DNA of 64,000 bases from a bacterium (lineage in GTDB: Bacteria; UBA8248). The notes beneath the pieces were generated by a model. That model saw only the letters and a program-made list of their open reading frames with translations. It made no database searches and had not been told where the DNA came from. This document shows, piece after piece, positions 4,993 through 15,562 of the stretch. A program made the translations under genes and the position numbers. The stretch covers positions 707,735-771,734 of the forward strand of contig CBDCRP010000003.1 of assembly GCA_965221165.1 (NCBI GenBank). The letters run 5' to 3'. How positions within the stretch are numbered: position 1 is the first letter of the stretch; each line of letters starts with the position of its first letter.

Positions 4993-5678
4993 ATATCGGG
5001 ATAAGGGAGCGGGTCCCGTTCACCGATTTCCTCGAACCCCTTTCGCCTCAGGATGCAAGCGTCGCATGACCCGCAGGGCCGCCCCTCGTCCAGCGGATCG
5101 TAGCAGGTATGGGTGAGAGAAAAATCCACTCCCAACTCCAGACCTTTAAGCACGATGTCGGACTTTCGCATTGTGCTCAAAGGCGTATGGATCACAAGAG
5201 GCGCGCCCCCCACGCCCGATTTCGTGGCCAGGCGCGCCATGCGTTCATAGGCTTCGATGTATTCGGGGCGGCAATCCGGATAGCCGGAATAATCGAGCGC
5301 GTTCACCCCGATAAAAATATCACTCGCGCCCTTCACCTCGGCCAAGGCCAGCGCATAGCTCAGAAAAATGGTGTTTCGCGCGGGCACATAGGTAACGGGT
5401 ATGCCCTCTCCGATGTCGGCGCGCTCCTTGGGCACCTCGATGTCGTCGGTGAGCGCGCTCCCGCCGATGGCGCGCATGTCGATGGACAATACGGCATGGC
5501 CCGATGCGCCGATTTGTTTCGCCACTTTTTTCGCGGCTATAAGTTCACACCGGTGCCTTTGCCCGTAGTCGAAACTGAGCGCCTCGCAGGCGAAGCCTTG
5601 CCCGTTCGCTATCGCCAGAACGACGGCGGAATCCATGCCGCCGCTCAGGAGAACGACCGCCACTCTTTTCCCGTCCAC
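4989..5678 (-). CDS. queC: 7-cyano-7-deazaguanine synthase
   Basis: The sequence has the PP-loop [10 protein letters not shown], then [16 protein letters not shown], and the C-terminal Zn motif C..CGSCDAC. I place the start at GTG 5678 ([14 protein letters not shown]), giving about 229 aa. The track ORF extends to 5897, but that N-terminal extension looks non-coding. Confidence 0.85.
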
Positions 5679-5729
5679 GTACGAACTCCTGCCTCTGCCG
5701 GTTGGATGAGCCTCTCTGCGAAAAAACGC

Positions 5730-5757
5730 ATAATAGGGTATTCTAGCGCTTCGGCAA
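5730..5757 (-). promoter_or_regulatory. possible sigma70-type promoter for queC
   Basis: On the minus strand: TTGCCG (5757..5752), a 16-nt spacer, then TATTAT (5735..5730), about 50 nt upstream of the GTG start. Pattern match only. Confidence 0.3.
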
Positions 5758-5796
5758 AGGTGAATGACGTGTTTCTTCCACCTGGAGGAGAGGACG

Positions 5797-6597
5797 ATGC
5801 CCGTTGCGACGGTGAATGGAGTGAACCTCGCGTACGTCATGAAAGGCAGGGGAGCGCCCCTCGTCGCGATGCACGGATTCGCCAACTCCATATACACCTG
5901 GGAGCCGGTGATGGATGCGTTTTCCCGGCGTTTTCAGGCCTTCGCATACGATCATCGCGGCCACGGGGGGTCGAGCAAAAAACAAAACCCTTATGAGATT
6001 CAAACCCTCACCGATGATCTGCTGGGTCTCCTGAACTTCTGGGGACTCGACAGGGTCCACCTCATGGGACACAGCATGGGCGGGCGCGTCGCCCTGTTGT
6101 TCGCCTTACAACACCCCGAGAGACTCGAGAGCCTGATGCTCATCGGCGCCTCCGCAGCAGCACCCGAAGGAGAAGTGAGACGACGATTCGAACTTCTTCG
6201 AAAAATGGCGCTCGATGAAGGAATGGCGGCGGTTCTCAAGAGCGAGGATATGCGGGCAACCCTCCCCCGGGACTACATCGACGGCCCAAGTGCGGAGAAA
6301 TTCAAAAGGCTATTCCTCAAAAACACACCCACCGACTACGCCGCGGCGGCAGACGCCATCCTCCAAACGCCGGACATGACGGCGCGCCTGGGTGAAATCC
6401 AGGCTCCCGCCTGGGTTTGCACGGGCGAGGGAGACGCCGGGGCGATGGCATATGGGGAGATGTTCGAGGAGCGAATCCCGGGTTGCGTGAGAACGATTAT
6501 CCCCGCCTGCGGGCATTTTCCGATGCAGGATGCGCCCGAGGCTTTTTGCGCCGCGTTCGATGACTTCGTCGAGGCGGCGATTGATTCGGACTCATAA
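5797..6597 (+). CDS. alpha/beta fold hydrolase
   Basis: Nucleophile elbow GHSMGG, with HG near the N-terminus (VAMHGFANS). The ATG at 5797 is preceded by GGAGGAG; the track ORF start at 5764 is less likely. Confidence 0.85.
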
Positions 6598-6608
6598 GGA
6601 GAACCTCC

Positions 6609-7010
6609 ATGACGCATGACGAGGCGGTGGCCTTCCTGAGCGAGCAGCACTACGGCGTCCTGAGCACCCTGCTCGAGGACGGGAGATCGCACCCCACGCC
6701 CATCGTGTTCGACTACAAAGAAGGAGTCGCGGAGATTTCCATGACGTGGGACCGCGTGAAGGCCAAAAACCTGAAGCGCGACCCCAGGGCAACGCTTTGC
6801 GTGATGCCGCAAGACAGCTTCTATCCCTACCTCTGCGCGGAAGGCGAGGCAGAACTCATCGAAGACCCGGACGGCACGAAAAACCTCGACCTCTACAGGC
6901 GCATCACCGGAAAGGACCCCGACGACCTCGATGAATACTTAGGAGCGATGAAAAACGAGAAACGACTCGTGGCCAGACTGAGCGTCAAGAGGATGTATCC
7001 GATTGGGTGA
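6609..7010 (+). CDS. pyridoxamine 5'-phosphate oxidase (PPOX) family protein, possibly F420-dependent class
   Basis: 133 aa. The pattern ...HYGVLSTLLEDGRSHPTPIVF...ISMTWDRVKAKNLKRDPRATLCV... is typical of the split-barrel PPOX family. Confidence 0.7.
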   Translation: MTHDEAVAFLSEQHYGVLSTLLEDGRSHPTPIVFDYKEGVAEISMTWDRVKAKNLKRDPRATLCVMPQDSFYPYLCAEGEAELIEDPDGTKNLDLYRRITGKDPDDLDEYLGAMKNEKRLVARLSVKRMYPIG

Positions 7011-10686: not shown

Positions 10687-11460
10687 ATGGGGATCTTTGG
10701 CCTTTTGGAGAATTTCCTGCTCTATCATCCCTACCGGGAAATCGAGCAAACGCCCAAAACCTACGGCGTCGCTTACGAGAACGTCTCCTTCAGCGCCGCA
10801 GACGGCGTGCGCCTGCACGGCTGGTACGTCGCGCCGAAGACCCCGGACGGCCCGGTTCTCCTGTGGGCGCACGGCAACGCCGGCAACCTCTCCCACCGCG
10901 CGGAGAACATCGCGCTCATTCAAGTGCAGTTGGGGGCCGGCGTCTTCATCTTCGACTACCGGGGGTACGGGAAAAGCGAGGGCAGGCCGAGCGAGGAGGG
11001 TCTCTACGCAGACGGCAGGGCCGCTTACGCCTGGCTCGTGAAACGCATACCTCACGAGCGCGTTTTTCTGTTCGGGCGCTCCCTGGGCGCGGCCGTGATG
11101 GTCAAGCTCGCCGTGGAGGGAAAAAAAGCGCGCGGCCTCATACTGGAGAGCCCCTTCGAGAGCACCCTCGCCATGGGGAAGAAGATGTTTCCCTTCCTGC
11201 CGGTGGGCTGGTTCATCTCCGCAAAATTCGACAGCGCGGCCATGCTCCCGGAAGTGGAGATGCCCTTGCTCGTTCTGCACGGCGATGTGGACGGCATAGT
11301 GCCCCACGCGCAGGGAAGGCGGCTCTACGAGGCGGCGCGCACGCCTTATAAACGCTTTTTCACCATCAAGGGCGCGGGCCACAACGACACGTATTTCACG
11401 GGGGGCGCCGCCTACTGGGCGGCATGGCGGGATTTTCTGAAAGATCCTGAATCAAGATGA
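10687..11460 (+). CDS. alpha/beta hydrolase (BEM46/S33-like, membrane-anchored)
   Basis: Motifs HGNAGN, the nucleophile elbow GRSLGA, and C-terminal GAGHND. The start is uncertain. The first ATG after the upstream gene is 10687, but the hydrophobic anchor (YLLLGAGVLIVMGIF) begins earlier, so a GTG (10675) or CTG (10627) start is possible. Confidence 0.8.
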   Translation: MGIFGLLENFLLYHPYREIEQTPKTYGVAYENVSFSAADGVRLHGWYVAPKTPDGPVLLWAHGNAGNLSHRAENIALIQVQLGAGVFIFDYRGYGKSEGRPSEEGLYADGRAAYAWLVKRIPHERVFLFGRSLGAAVMVKLAVEGKKARGLILESPFESTLAMGKKMFPFLPVGWFISAKFDSAAMLPEVEMPLLVLHGDVDGIVPHAQGRRLYEAARTPYKRFFTIKGAGHNDTYFTGGAAYWAAWRDFLKDPESR

Positions 11461-12258
11461 ACCGGAAGTCGGCTCCCTTCTCCTGCCCCGGCGTCTCGCG
11501 CGAAACTCCCGCAGCAGCCTCTCATGGTGTACGCTCGTGAAGAAACTCTCGACGAATGCGTTCACCGGGCGGTTGATGAGGTTCTCCGGCGTATCGACCT
11601 GAACAATTACGCCATCGCGCATCACGGCGATCCTGTCTGCGATTTGAAACGCATCCGTCAAATCATGCGTCACCAGCAGGCTGATCGCCCCGATCTCATC
11701 ATGCACCCTTCTCAACTCTTTGCGGACCTCGAGCCTGGCGACCGGATCGATATTCGCCAAAGGCTCATCGAGAAGAAAAACGCGAGGCGGTATCGCGATG
11801 GCGCGGCCAATCGCGACTTTCTGCTGCTGGCCCGCGCTCAGGCTGTCCGGGCGGCGGCGGGACCATTTTTTACTGATCCCCAGACGCCGCATCACATCCT
11901 GCGCTCGCTCGTTCAGGATGCCCGGCAGCCATCGGCGGATTTTGAGCGCGAAACTCAGGTTCGAGTATTTTTTTTCATCGAAAACCTTCATGTGCGGCCA
12001 CAGCGCGTAGCTCTGGAACACGAGTTGCACCCCGCGCCGGCCGGGCGGGATGCCGTTCAGTCGCACGCCGTCCAAGTAGATATGGCCCGCATCCTCATCC
12101 TCCACGCCGGCTATCAAGCGCAACAGGGTCGATTTCCCGCAACCCGTGGGCCCGACGAGCACCATGAATTCCCCCTCTTCGAGCGCAAGGGAAAGATTAT
12201 CGACCGCGCACACGTCGTCAAAATCTTTTTTGAGTCCCGTAATCGTCAGACGGCTCAT
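11452..12258 (-). CDS. ABC transporter ATP-binding protein (MalK/PotA-like), orphan
   Basis: Walker A GPTGCGKS, signature LSAGQQQ, Walker B VFLLDEP, H-loop VTHD. I place the start at ATG 12258 (MSRLTITGL). No permease or binding-protein gene is nearby. Confidence 0.85.
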   Translation of the reverse strand: MSRLTITGLKKDFDDVCAVDNLSLALEEGEFMVLVGPTGCGKSTLLRLIAGVEDEDAGHIYLDGVRLNGIPPGRRGVQLVFQSYALWPHMKVFDEKKYSNLSFALKIRRWLPGILNERAQDVMRRLGISKKWSRRRPDSLSAGQQQKVAIGRAIAIPPRVFLLDEPLANIDPVARLEVRKELRRVHDEIGAISLLVTHDLTDAFQIADRIAVMRDGVIVQVDTPENLINRPVNAFVESFFTSVHHERLLREFRARRRGRRREPTSGSS

Positions 12259-12275
12259 GCTTCTCTCCGGCCCGT

Positions 12276-12632
12276 TCATTCCCCAGGCGCTAGTTCGTTC
12301 AGCGCCTCCATACCCGGCGTGAATATCTCCTCCAGAACGAGCGGCCCATCGCCCGCGTTGCTTGTGGCGTGCTCCTGGTTGGGCGGAAAAACCACGACGC
12401 CGCCCGGCCCGAGCACCACCTCCCGTCCGGCGCACCCGAACCTCGCGCGTCCTTCGAGAACAATCGTCATCTGCTCGTTGGGATGCGAATGGGGGTTGTA
12501 TATGTCCACACCGGCGCGAATCGTCTGGCGAAGCACGGTAAGCTTCTCACCCGCCACCACGCGCTGAATCCTCTCTCCGGTATCGTGCGCTTCCATCTCC
12601 TCGAAATGGTAGTATTTCACTCTCTTCTCCAT
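12276..12632 (-). CDS. cupin domain-containing protein
   Basis: 118 aa with the cupin motifs HSHPNEQMTIVLEG and ...VVVFPPNQEH. Confidence 0.8.
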   Translation of the reverse strand: MEKRVKYYHFEEMEAHDTGERIQRVVAGEKLTVLRQTIRAGVDIYNPHSHPNEQMTIVLEGRARFGCAGREVVLGPGGVVVFPPNQEHATSNAGDGPLVLEEIFTPGMEALNELAPGE

Positions 12633-12754
12633 CTGAATGGATGAAACTTTACAGAAAAATTAAGTTCGGGCCGGAGAACCAACCGATTCATCGTATAGAA
12701 GTATTTGCATCCGCTCAATCGTTCTCCTAAAGTGTTTGCAGGCCGCTTAACCGT

Positions 12755-13288
12755 ATGGAGACCGTCATGAAGCGAACCCCTATTTACATCGCCGCCATCG
12801 TCTTTCTCGCCGTGTTCTGGACGTTTTATCAGGCAGGCGCATCGGGGCTCGGACCCGGCGCGCGCGCGCCCGAGCTCAAAGGCGGGCCCTGGCTGGGCGG
12901 CGAACCACTGAAACTCTCGGAATTACGCGGCAAGGTCGTGTTGCTCGACATGTGGACGTTCGCCTGAATCAATTGCGTGCGGGAGATCCCCACGCTGCGC
13001 TCGTGGCACGAGCGATATGAGGACAAGGGGCTGGTCGTCATCGGAAACCACGCGCCCGAGTTCAACTTTGACAAGAAAAAAGCGAACGTGGAAGAAGCCA
13101 TGGCCAAGCTCGGCATCAAATACCGCGTCGTGATGGATAATGAATTCACCAACTGGGACGCCTTTCAAAATCGCTTCTGGCCGACAAAATACCTGATCGA
13201 CAAAAAAGGCGTCGTGCGCTTCAAGACGATTGGAGAGGGCAACCACGCGCGCACCGAGGCGATGATCATGAAACTGCTCGCCGAATGA
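12755..13288 (+). CDS. membrane-anchored TlpA/DipZ-C-terminal-type redoxin with in-frame TGA (12965..12967) at the first Cys of the CxxC motif: candidate selenoprotein (U-I-N-C)
   Basis: Track ORFs 12755..12967 and 12977..13288 are in the same frame. The read-through product is ...LRGKVVLLDMWTFA-U-INCVREIPTLRSWHERYEDKGLVVIGNHAPEFNFD...WPTKYLIDKKGVVRF..GEG, a complete redoxin domain. The second half has no ATG or RBS of its own. Confidence 0.7.
12975..12995 (+). promoter_or_regulatory. SECIS-like hairpin downstream of the UGA in the redoxin gene
   Basis: GCGUG-C-GGG [AGAU] CCC-CACGC: 8 bp with one bulged C. It starts 8 nt after the UGA, and the apical loop lies about 18-21 nt from it. Folded by eye only. 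Confidence 0.45.
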
Positions 13289-14274
13289 TGGAAACCGAAG
13301 AAACGGCGCAACCGGCGAGCACCCCCGCCTATCCCTACTCGTCTCTCTTAAGGATCACCCACTGGCTGAACGTCCCCCTCCTGCTCCTCATGATGGCGAG
13401 CGGGTTTCAGATATGGTGGGCATACCCCGCGTTCGGGCCGGACAGGCCCAACCCGGAGGCCATCTTCGAATCACTGCGGGGCACGGAGGTACAGGCCGAC
13501 CCGCGCGCCATCAACCTGGGCGCCGACTACAGGGTTTTCGTCCAAGGCCTCACGAAAACCTTCGGCATCGGGGAATGGCTCGCGGGCGCGCTGCGCTGGC
13601 ACTTCGCTCTCATGTGGCCCTACACCATCAACGGGCTGATTTTCCTTCTTCTCCTGCTCTTGACGGAGGAAGGGAGGCACTACCGAATAAGGCAGGGAGA
13701 TTTCTCCGGCGCGAAGGAGATGCTCTTACACCCCATCAAAACCTTTCACCATCCTCCCGGAGAGGGAAAATTCAACCCGATACAAAAACTCGCGTACAAC
13801 ACCGTCATACTGGCCGGGGTGATGTCCGTCCTCACGGGTCTCGCCATCCTCAAACCCGTCCAGTTCAAGTGGCTGACCCGGCTTTTCGGGGGCTATCAGC
13901 CGAGCAGATTCCTGCATTTTCTCGTCATGTTGTTTCTCGTCATTTTCATGATCGGCCATTTTCTCATGGTGATATCCCACGGATGGCGGCGAGGGCTTGC
14001 ACCCATGATCGTCGGAATCAAGGCGGAGCGCGACGCTTTTCAGGCCAGACAAAGGCAATTCGCCAAAAATCTCGGCCGCGTAGCCGCCGAGGGAGCGATT
14101 CTGCTGGTTTCCTTTTGGCTCGGAACCCTCATCGCGGATATGATGAACGCAGCCTTGGGCGGCGAGGCATCGGGCGCGTGGTTCGGCGCGCTCGGCTACC
14201 TCTTCGTGCGGGCGGGCCTCATGCGAGGGGGGCGCATCGAAGGCTTTCGCTGGAAGCGAAGCCTCGGGAGTTGA
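13285..14274 (+). CDS. b-type cytochrome membrane protein (Ni/Fe-hydrogenase / thiosulfate-reductase cytochrome b-like)
   Basis: 329 aa with several TM helices. The N-terminal motif LRITHWLN and His residues in the helices match this family. The ATG overlaps the redoxin stop (ATGA at 13285..13288). Confidence 0.75.
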   Translation: MMETEETAQPASTPAYPYSSLLRITHWLNVPLLLLMMASGFQIWWAYPAFGPDRPNPEAIFESLRGTEVQADPRAINLGADYRVFVQGLTKTFGIGEWLAGALRWHFALMWPYTINGLIFLLLLLLTEEGRHYRIRQGDFSGAKEMLLHPIKTFHHPPGEGKFNPIQKLAYNTVILAGVMSVLTGLAILKPVQFKWLTRLFGGYQPSRFLHFLVMLFLVIFMIGHFLMVISHGWRRGLAPMIVGIKAERDAFQARQRQFAKNLGRVAAEGAILLVSFWLGTLIADMMNAALGGEASGAWFGALGYLFVRAGLMRGGRIEGFRWKRSLGS

Positions 14275-14278
14275 GCGA

Positions 14279-14569
14279 ATGAGCACGGAAGAACAAATGG
14301 AATTCATACTGCCGACCAAACTGGCGAAGCGTAGGCTTTTCGTGGGCAGGCTGGTTTTGAGCGTCGTTTGCATCAACGCGCTTCTCTCTCTCCTCGCCGC
14401 ATATCTGCTGAGCGGGCCGATGACCTGGCTAACGCGGTTTGAGTTCGGGTTCCTGGCCTGGGCCTCCATCTTATTCCCGACTTCTCTCGTTCTGGCGGTC
14501 CCGATAATGGCGCCCATCATCATTAAAATACTGAAATCCCCGCCTGCGTCCTCTGAAGAGAGAAGATGA
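14279..14569 (+). CDS. small hydrophobic membrane protein, unknown function
   Basis: 96 aa with 2-3 predicted TM segments. It is wedged between the cytochrome gene (4-nt gap) and the Mo-enzyme gene (4-nt overlap). Confidence 0.5.
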   Translation: MSTEEQMEFILPTKLAKRRLFVGRLVLSVVCINALLSLLAAYLLSGPMTWLTRFEFGFLAWASILFPTSLVLAVPIMAPIIIKILKSPPASSEERR

Positions 14570-15378
14570 AAAAAGGCGAAAAGCGAAACCCAGGCGTTGG
14601 CGTGGACAAGTCTTCATCGTCCCGGCGCGGATTCATGAAAATGCTCCTTGGCCTCGCCTCCGTATTCATGGCCGGGTGTTCCCGCCTGAACGAAGAGCCC
14701 AAGGTGCAGGCCGTCCTCAGTTGGTTCGATCGCCTGAACCACAAGGTGGGCCTCATGACGGACAGCAACCACCGACTGGCGCGCACCTACCCCAGAAGCG
14801 CCGTTCAGCCCGAACAAATGCGGCCCAACGGCTCGGTGGTCTCGCCGAACTCCCAGCTCATCCAGACGCCCCCCGAGAAGTGGCGCCTCGTCGTGGGGGA
14901 AGCCCATCTGCAAAAGGGCCGGATGATGAAAAGACACTGGGCCAGGGAATACACGCTTGCGCAGCTTCGCGAGATGCCCGTTCTCGAGCAGACGGTGGAG
15001 CACGTTTGCGTCGAGGGCTGGAGCGCCATCTGCCACTGGCAGGGAGTGCACCTCGCGCGCTTCATCGAGATGCACAAGCTCAGGCCCGAGAGCCGCTACG
15101 TGTTCTTCCTGTGCGACGACATGCTCGCCACCGCGAACGGGCACGAGCGCTACAGCGTGACGTTCGACTTAAAGCAGGCGATGCACCCGCAGAACGTGCT
15201 GGCGTATGAATACAACGGCGAGACGCTGCCCGTGAACCACGGCGCTCCCATCCGCCTCGCCTCGCCCGCGAACGTGGGCTGGAAGAGCGCGAAATTCCTG
15301 CGCTACGTCTTTTTCACGAACGAGGACCTGGGCGGATTATGGGAGAAGCAGGGGTATCCGCGCTATTATGGATTCTGA
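14566..15378 (+). CDS. molybdopterin-dependent oxidoreductase of the sulfite-oxidase/YedY(MsrP) fold, with Tat signal and lipobox
   Basis: Twin-arginine motif SSRRGFMKM followed by MAGC. Mo-domain motifs VCVEGWSAICHWQGV and NHGAPIRLASP. Confidence 0.85.
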   Translation: MKKGEKRNPGVGVDKSSSSRRGFMKMLLGLASVFMAGCSRLNEEPKVQAVLSWFDRLNHKVGLMTDSNHRLARTYPRSAVQPEQMRPNGSVVSPNSQLIQTPPEKWRLVVGEAHLQKGRMMKRHWAREYTLAQLREMPVLEQTVEHVCVEGWSAICHWQGVHLARFIEMHKLRPESRYVFFLCDDMLATANGHERYSVTFDLKQAMHPQNVLAYEYNGETLPVNHGAPIRLASPANVGWKSAKFLRYVFFTNEDLGGLWEKQGYPRYYGF

Positions 15379-15487: not shown

Positions 15488-15562
15488 TCCGGCGTAGCTC
15501 AACGGCAGAGCAATCGGCTGTTAACCGATGGGTTGTAGGTTCGAATCCTACCGCCGGAGCCA
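15488..15562 (+). tRNA. tRNA-Asn (anticodon GTT at 15520..15522), CCA encoded
   Basis: Cloverleaf drawn by hand: acceptor TCCGGCG/CGCCGGA, D arm GCTC..GAGC, anticodon arm ATCGG-CTGTTAA-CCGAT, T arm GTAGG-TTCGAAT-CCTAC, discriminator G, then CCA. Confidence 0.9.

Follow-up and report, generated by a model that had tools for sequence, protein, structure and literature searches.

The analysed DNA, called the window below, is a stretch of 64,000 nucleotides (nt) from a bacterial genome (assembly GCA_965221165.1, contig CBDCRP010000003.1, positions 707,735 to 771,734); the records of its relatives name the lineage Candidatus Tectomicrobia or Tectimicrobiota. Between positions 12755 and 15378 the window carries four close-packed plus-strand genes, which encode a DipZ-type redoxin with a very probable selenocysteine (Sec) in its active site, a b-type cytochrome, a small membrane protein of 96 amino acids (aa) and a molybdenum (Mo) enzyme related to YedY/MsrP (Table 1). 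The list of open reading frames shows two ATGA overlaps and one 4-nt gap: the redoxin stop overlaps the cytochrome ATG at 13285-13288, the gene of the 96-aa protein starts at 14279, 4 nt past the cytochrome stop, and its own stop overlaps the Mo-enzyme ATG at 14566-14569. An earlier note on this DNA had described the same packing at the same coordinates and had read the operon as an MsrPQ-like envelope redox module of unusual composition. The gene overlaps are the basis for proposing that the four genes are co-transcribed. The redoxin start given in that note, 12755, is corrected here: orthologs begin at the second ATG (MKRT...), which is preceded by GGAG, and 12767 is therefore probably the true start. 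A tRNA-Asn gene at 15488-15562 marks the 3' boundary of the operon and was the sole match in an Rfam scan of the window.

Table 1. Features of the four-gene locus (positions in the window; TM, transmembrane; SECIS, selenocysteine insertion sequence).
Feature	Position	Strand	Basis or detail
Upstream intergenic region	12633..12766	+	Probable ribosome-binding site GGAG, 12757-12760
Redoxin frame	12755-12967 + 12977-13288	+	Single frame, sole break TGA 12965-12967
DipZ-type (TlpA-like) redoxin, predicted exported, active site U-I-N-C	12767..13288	+	173 aa from 12767 (177 aa from 12755)
In-frame TGA, very probably read as Sec, residue 71 (counted from 12755)	12965..12967	+	Alignment, ortholog conservation
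SECIS-like hairpin, 8 bp, one bulged C, loop AGAU	12975..12995	+	RNA folding; begins 8 nt past UGA
Di-haem b-type cytochrome, PF01292 (Ni_hydr_CYTB) type, 329 aa	13285..14274	+	Pfam 8.6e-17
Cytochrome C-terminal extension, ~80 aa, one or two extra hydrophobic helices	14017..14271	+	Window clade only
Membrane protein, 96 aa, two predicted helices, lineage-restricted	14279..14569	+	TM segments 25-43, 64-82
YedY/MsrP-like molybdopterin enzyme, predicted Tat-exported and lipid-anchored, 270 aa	14566..15378	+	PF00174 2e-27
Tat motif S-R-R-G-F-M-K and lipobox M-A-G-C	14620..14679	+	14620-14640 and 14668-14679
C-V-E-G-W-S motif, presumed Mo-ligand Cys148	15007..15024	+	Invariant in alignment A1

In Pfam the redoxin belongs to AhpC-TSA/Redoxin (2.4e-13), with a weak GSHPx-like signal of 22.8 bits, and its best NCBIfam match is ResA/TlpA-like. 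A family profile made of the window protein and 12 Cys-containing homologs matched the C-terminal thioredoxin-like domain of M. tuberculosis DipZ (2HYX) with an e-value of 3.7e-59, followed by B. subtilis YkuV and the thioredoxin (Trx) domains of SOQ1 and NHLRC2. At the N-terminus, K/R residues lead into a hydrophobic helix and then AGA|SG, and the homologs are either lipobox-bearing or fused behind a CcdA membrane domain. Because of this signal or helix and of the lipoboxes and CcdA fusions of the homologs, the redoxin is predicted to be exported or signal-anchored with its domain outside the cytoplasm, and the periplasm-facing orientation proposed earlier is retained.

The in-frame TGA stands at the invariant first Cys of the W-T-x-x-C-x-N-C motif of the 12 Cys homologs, and U71-I-N-C74 aligns with their invariant C-x-N-C. 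The TGA is retained in every ortholog examined and the protein is strongly conserved on either side of it. The hairpin that follows shows compensatory changes in two pairs among 6 orthologs; its folding z-score alone is weak (-1.7), and neither an Rfam family nor a SECIS family matched near the TGA. The genome encodes SelA (564.2 bits), SelB (383.8 bits) and SelD (329.8 bits), all above their cut-offs, as well as a tRNA-Sec (C2:1080614-1080710), and its SelD gene likewise carries a TGA. The Cys alignment, the retention in orthologs, the covarying hairpin and the Sec machinery together make it very probable that the TGA encodes Sec, as the earlier note had suspected. A TGA was also seen at the same active-site codon (WTFG*INC) in eight metagenome loci of other lineages (L109, L121, L126, L129, L142, L160, L168, L177). 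These eight share a different covarying hairpin, AUUCCCUC-GUU-GAGGGAAU, located ~21-40 nt downstream and unlike that of the window clade, and three of the eight genes precede a canonical MsrP.

The cytochrome has no PF01794 match in Pfam, so that classification by hidden Markov model agrees with the previous assignment to PF01292 rather than to the YedZ type. Similarity to the b subunits of hydrogenases, thiosulfate reductases and formate dehydrogenases was detected below threshold. Of 87 homologs, 86-87 retain each of the residues H26, H106, H211, H225, R23 and R208, and the His pattern is the one that we take to be expected of a di-haem four-helix cytochrome b such as FdnI of formate dehydrogenase. 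Past H225 the protein continues for 105-108 aa in the window clade versus 19-30 aa in all other subfamilies, and an additional TM segment is predicted at residues 266-284. The 96-aa protein matches no family in Pfam or NCBIfam. It has the conserved motifs LPTxLA[KR]RRL, LSGP and RFxxGF and forms only 4 clusters among 1.84 billion representative proteins, so that it is confined to the Tectimicrobiota lineage. A thiol-relay role for it was rejected, its sole Cys being unconserved. In one locus of the same genus (L204; G033 C1, ~254559-255326) the frame of the small protein joins that of the Mo enzyme without a stop, which may be a fusion or a sequencing error.

For the Mo enzyme the best NCBIfam model is MsrP (NF003767), with 70.9 bits, under the 207-bit equivalog cut-off. 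Both by sequence and by fold the best relative in the PDB is E. coli YedY (1XDQ/1XDY); the fold search used an AlphaFold model with a mean pLDDT of 76.9. In the profile match to YedY (3.1e-24), CVEGWS is aligned with RCVEAWS of 1XDQ, and the Cys at this position, the Mo ligand in the YedY structure, is presumed to be the Mo ligand here as well. Alignment A1, which holds 17 Mo-enzyme sequences across subfamilies (32-81% identity), shows R20, R21, G37, C38 and the CVEGWS block to be invariant. The twin arginines and the lipobox Gly-Cys are therefore conserved features, and the lipid-anchored Tat protein recognised earlier from SRRGFMK and MAGC fits these data. The protein ends with the Mo domain and has no dimerisation domain (270 aa versus 370-470 aa in sulfite oxidases).

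A neighbourhood survey found the four-gene arrangement conserved in related genomes, which the earlier interpretation had presupposed. The four genes occur in the same order in all loci examined from the window genus and five further genera of one family, with Mo-enzyme identities of 58-93%; since the arrangement recurs in every locus examined from these 6 genera, it is not a product of chance. Loci from the phylum search cover just the 3' part of the redoxin gene, and the TGA was seen where the redoxin was covered. Within the window genus, 22 of 23 genomes contain the Mo enzyme. Neither the 96-aa protein nor the C-terminal cytochrome extension occurs outside this Tectimicrobiota family. In the maximum-likelihood phylogeny the window clade forms a monophyletic group (100/100) with a long stem, placed among cytochrome b-linked subfamilies. 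Its sister, a Tat-lipoprotein Mo enzyme from the same class (L208 3285-3992; G005), has no adjacent cytochrome b and is encoded between nrdR and the gene of a YihY-like membrane protein.

The pair of cytochrome b and Mo enzyme is much more widespread than the four-gene set. The Mo-enzyme profile retrieved 596 related stretches from species-representative genomes, and the neighbourhood counts given here refer to the best 80, which come from Alpha-, Beta- and Gammaproteobacteria, Gemmatimonadota, Acidobacteriota, Nitrospirota and Methylomirabilota. A homolog of the window cytochrome adjoins the Mo gene in all 80 loci and lies immediately upstream in 79; in the window, one small gene stands between the two. 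Directly beside the pair, ~24 of the 80 loci (~30%) encode a Met-rich MXKDX-repeat protein with a signal peptide. These belong to two subfamilies: the peptide gene is upstream of the pair in the alpha-type subfamily and downstream of it in the beta/gamma-type. Peptides of this type are the 'sacrificial methionine' proteins MrpX, BcrX and C3568 of Azospira, Brucella and uropathogenic E. coli (UPEC), respectively (PMC4436054, PMC8315932, PMC8550376), and those of the MrpX type are described as sacrificial Met sinks regenerated by YedY1 (PMC4436054). One genome (Bordetella genomosp. 2, L074) contains two cytochrome b-Mo pairs, at 490-1966 and 5327-6803, ~4.8 kb apart and with identical Mo-domain proteins.

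Searching the UPEC strain CFT073 with the A1 profile found c3567 (4.8e-56) and, with a lower score, the canonical MsrP of the strain (8.6e-25). RefSeq annotates, next to c3567, a protein with a cytochrome b/b6 domain, a hypothetical protein of 80 aa and the two-component system OrhK/OrhR. The profile search thereby confirms, on the level of sequence, that c3567 belongs to the Mo-enzyme family of the window; a 'distant' blastn search of E. coli genomes with an Enterobacterales cytochrome b-Mo locus had returned nothing. Mutants of c3566 and c3567 are peroxide-sensitive and survive less well in macrophages, and C3566 was called an MsrQ homolog at 23% identity (PMC8550376). RefSeq lists c3566 of CFT073 as a frameshifted pseudogene (L215 3052-3650; NC_004431.1 3415551-3416149), yet deletion phenotypes have been published. 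Going by the statements of the respective papers, the Azospira YedY1/Z1-MrpX and Brucella BcrXQP systems probably belong to the same family (PMC4436054, PMC8315932).

The redoxin is also found beside MsrP-like enzymes outside the window lineage. Members of its family are frequent, either as DipZ-type fusions or encoded by stand-alone genes. Among the 80 best metagenome loci, 9 have a member directly upstream of a canonical MsrP, as does L100; MsrQ comes next in 7 of these 10, and in 2 of the other 3 the contig ends within MsrP. TGA forms make up 3 of the 9 metagenome cases. In one further locus (L181) the order is Mo-cytochrome b-redoxin, and in two betaproteobacterial clusters, of Rubrivivax and another species (L083, L019), it is cytochrome b-Mo-MXKDX-CcdA::redoxin, with a CcdA-fused redoxin at the cluster end. 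Including the window operon, DipZ-family redoxins thus stand beside MsrP-like enzymes in four configurations. This adjacency is judged to be well above chance, for which ~1 in 1000 per locus is a rough estimate with no computed control. The link appears to be recurrent, not obligatory; no description of it was found in the literature, and it is the most useful lead of the analysis.

The rest of the genome was examined for possible partners. It contains a single CcdA homolog on contig C1 (C1:29082-29981, PF02683 5.4e-12) with both Cys motifs, which is neither fused nor adjacent to the redoxin; the earlier statement that no CcdA/DsbD-type protein is encoded near the operon is thus correct. PF01794, the MsrQ family, is absent from the window genome. 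A canonical MsrP is present (C3:392725-393780; L184 3223-4281, minus strand), with 352 aa, a Tat signal and RCVEAWA, and is apparently monocistronic. Across the phylum, MsrP was found in 47 of 51 genomes and PF01794 in 3 of 51. With PF01794 this rare, canonical MsrP in the phylum must use a donor other than MsrQ, and the operon is not a simple replacement of MsrPQ. That the orphan canonical MsrP requires the operon cytochrome b was considered and is unlikely, as MsrP also occurs in genera without the operon. A genome-wide scan for MXKDX-like peptides found none. One lipoprotein (C3:1302153-1302716, plus strand) has a Met/Lys-rich stretch after its lipobox, with 9 Met in 40 aa, and is a possible sacrificial-methionine protein.

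Our preferred reading, held with moderate confidence, is that the operon encodes a two-armed extracytoplasmic repair and antioxidant module, whose functions we infer throughout from sequence comparison. In the first arm, the four-helix di-haem cytochrome b would draw electrons from the quinol pool, move them across the membrane and pass them to the Mo-molybdopterin enzyme, which would fold in the cytoplasm before its export by Tat and be kept next to the cytochrome by its lipid anchor. The Mo enzyme would deoxygenate sulfoxides, most probably methionine sulfoxide of envelope proteins or peptides, in the manner of MsrP with MsrQ. In the second arm, the U-x-x-C DipZ-type redoxin would reach the same compartment by the Sec translocation pathway, reduce oxidised cysteines (sulfenates, disulfides) or peroxides, and be recharged by the single CcdA of the genome, encoded elsewhere. 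The 96-aa protein and the clade-specific cytochrome helices would be structural accessories of the membrane complex, and translational coupling would keep the parts of the module in step. The Mo enzyme is more probably a reductase than an oxidase because YedY/MsrP provides both the closest structure and the closest NCBIfam model and because the dimerisation domain is absent. Methionine sulfoxide is suggested as the substrate by the MXKDX peptides beside the pair, the kinship with CFT073 c3566/c3567/c3568 and the peroxide-sensitive mutants, and recharging by CcdA is possible because the genome encodes a CcdA homolog with both Cys motifs. Gene order, families, motifs, conservation of the haem and Mo ligands, the evidence for Sec and the phylogenetic and neighbourhood associations were observed, whereas which way the electrons flow, what the substrate is, what the redoxin works with and what the small protein does are proposals.

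Several observations weigh against this module. The genome also has a canonical MsrP, and the Mo enzyme of the operon may therefore have a different substrate. Neither in the window nor in the orthologous loci is the operon flanked by a gene for a Met-rich peptide or by a stress regulator. The window clade shares just 25-37% identity with the MXKDX-associated subfamilies, has a long stem and has its own insertion. The deep forks of the tree have less than 95% support, and the long branch of canonical MsrP is nested among them. Most members of the redoxin family are found in other contexts.

Instead of working side by side, the redoxin and the Mo enzyme could be directly coupled. The redoxin would then donate two electrons to Mo(VI), or else the Mo enzyme would deoxygenate the selenenic or sulfenic redoxin, in which case quinol electrons would recycle a peroxidase-like selenoprotein without CcdA. 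Such coupling would suit the ATGA overlap of the redoxin and cytochrome genes, the occurrence of the same redoxin family upstream of two MsrP types in unrelated lineages, the distance to CcdA, the weak GSHPx-like signal and the co-occurrence of the clade-specific membrane parts with the redoxin. The genome does have a CcdA, however, and the CcdA-fused homologous redoxins of the two betaproteobacterial clusters argue for the usual thiol relay; moreover, no precedent for such chemistry in the sulfite oxidase family was found in the literature, and the small protein has no conserved Cys. Direct coupling is considered unlikely on this evidence. There is a very slight chance that all four products (Sec redoxin, extended cytochrome b, small protein and Mo lipoprotein) belong to a single complex, where electrons from quinol would directly regenerate the oxidised selenoprotein, either through Mo-catalysed deoxygenation of a selenenic or sulfenic intermediate or along some other route that bypasses CcdA. 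If true, it would be a quinol-driven periplasmic seleno-peroxidase and repair machine. The opposite case, that the redoxin has nothing to do with the Mo system (serving, for example, cytochrome c or copper-centre maturation) and stands in the operon by historical accident, would agree with the prevalence of DipZ fusions and of stand-alone genes elsewhere in the family. Four independent adjacency configurations with MsrP-like enzymes, at the chance level estimated above, as well as the translational coupling and the retention of the redoxin in every genus that has the operon, make it highly improbable.

The substrate can also be read differently. E. coli YedY reduces dimethyl sulfoxide (DMSO) as well as trimethylamine N-oxide (TMAO) in vitro, and the Mo enzyme of the window could by analogy be a terminal or detoxifying reductase of small S-, N- or Se-oxides (DMSO, TMAO, selenite-type) that takes no part in protein repair, with the redoxin merely co-expressed. 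Besides the activity of YedY, the lack of Met-rich peptide partners in the window clade, the coexistence with canonical MsrP and an insertion that is specific to this clade and lies close to the Mo domain's N-terminal side would be in keeping with this. The flanking subfamilies are nevertheless tied to Met-rich peptides and oxidative-stress phenotypes (PMC8550376) and have the invariants of the catalytic core in common with the window clade, and association with a redoxin suits protein repair more than respiration; a role in small-oxide reduction is accordingly thought to be rather improbable. Oxidation of sulfite or a similar compound, with electrons delivered through cytochrome b to quinone, would be compatible with the fold of the sulfite oxidase family and with weak NCBIfam matches to SorA, SoxC and SorT. 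These matches score 31-41 bits where the cut-offs are 420-600, the CVEGWS motif is that of YedY whereas the aligned residues of plant sulfite oxidase are CAGN, and both the dimerisation domain and a cytochrome c partner are absent. Sulfite dehydrogenation is thus very unlikely, and the repair and antioxidant module continues to be preferred.

An upstream block, TCATCGTATAGAAGTATTTGCATCCGCTCAA, is conserved in same-genus orthologs alone, a sigma-70 consensus scan detected no promoter upstream of the operon, and the consensus scan for promoters and terminators was uninformative. Divergent minus-strand genes of a cupin and an ABC-ATPase (window 12276-12632 and 11452-12435) lie upstream. Their synteny with the operon holds in two genera (L005, L006), whereas a third (L008) has a sigma-54 response regulator in their place, which identifies them as neighbours and not as parts of the operon. 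ARAGORN predicted a tRNA-Pro (GGG) on the minus strand inside the Mo gene (14748-14824); the Rfam tRNA model found none there, and the prediction is probably a false positive.

The interpretation of the locus as an MsrPQ-like envelope redox module held for composition and architecture at every testable point. Its novelty was half right. The earlier note knew of no described system of this composition, but the pair of cytochrome b and Mo lipoprotein is widespread and includes UPEC c3566/c3567 (PMC8550376); it is a known, genetically characterised kind, whose distinct membrane partner has so far gone unremarked. The four-gene set, the coupling to a Sec redoxin and the small protein are undescribed in the literature found. 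What appears to be new is the translational coupling of a Sec redoxin to the pair, the small protein together with the cytochrome tail, and the recurrent link between redoxin and MsrP. A large MsrP-like family that spans several phyla has a cytochrome b of the hydrogenase/formate dehydrogenase type and a lipid anchor in place of MsrQ. The membrane subunits of UPEC and Brucella have been described as MsrQ homologs (PMC8550376, PMC8315932), and assumptions derived from MsrQ (FMN site, Fre dependence) may not hold for the PF01292-partnered family. DipZ-type redoxins, Sec forms included, are repeatedly linked to both kinds of Mo-dependent sulfoxide reductase, which suggests a general partnership of thiol- or selenol-based with Mo-based envelope repair. 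The locus also adds a predicted membrane-associated selenoprotein to the poorly known phylum Tectimicrobiota.

Compared with E. coli MsrPQ (YedYZ), the window operon likewise joins a YedY-type Mo enzyme, predicted to be periplasmic and Tat-exported, to a haem-b protein of the membrane, and the presumed logic, from quinol to sulfoxide, would by analogy be the same. In contrast to MsrQ (PF01794), the partner is a PF01292 protein with 4 helices, the gene order is reversed with the cytochrome first, and the Mo subunit is a predicted lipoprotein, ~60 aa shorter and under the MsrP equivalog cut-off. In the UPEC C3566/C3567/C3568 system, a putative Msr system under OrhK/OrhR control (PMC8550376), a PF01292-type cytochrome b/b6 protein is directly followed by a Tat-lipoprotein PF00174 enzyme of ~250 aa. 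C3567 has the RR, lipobox (LTGC) and CVEGWS of the window enzyme, but the two share 25% identity and fall into different tree subfamilies. Furthermore, the window operon lacks a Met-rich peptide and an adjacent two-component regulator and adds the Sec redoxin, the 96-aa protein and the cytochrome tail. YedY1/YedZ1-MrpX of Azospira suillum and BcrXQP of Brucella are operons induced by stress that combine a membrane cytochrome with a periplasmic Mo enzyme and a Met-rich peptide, and the papers group them with the UPEC operon (PMC4436054, PMC8315932). Compared by description, their gene orders match those of the beta- and alphaproteobacterial loci of this family, whereas the window operon has neither the peptide nor an ECF (extracytoplasmic function) sigma factor.

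The redoxin arm has its own counterparts. With the C-terminal domain of DipZ (Rv2874) it shares an extracytoplasmic reducing Trx fold and the motif W-T-x-x-C-x-N-C, but the window redoxin is stand-alone, lacks both the CcdA membrane part and the carbohydrate-binding module, and very probably has Sec for the first Cys. In the CcdA-Etrx-MsrAB and PilB-type envelope Msr systems a TlpA-like redoxin is likewise genetically tied to methionine-sulfoxide repair. There the reductase is the thiol-dependent MsrA/B, whereas the enzyme linked to the window redoxin is a putative Mo-dependent sulfoxide reductase, and for this reason the redoxin need not be its electron donor.

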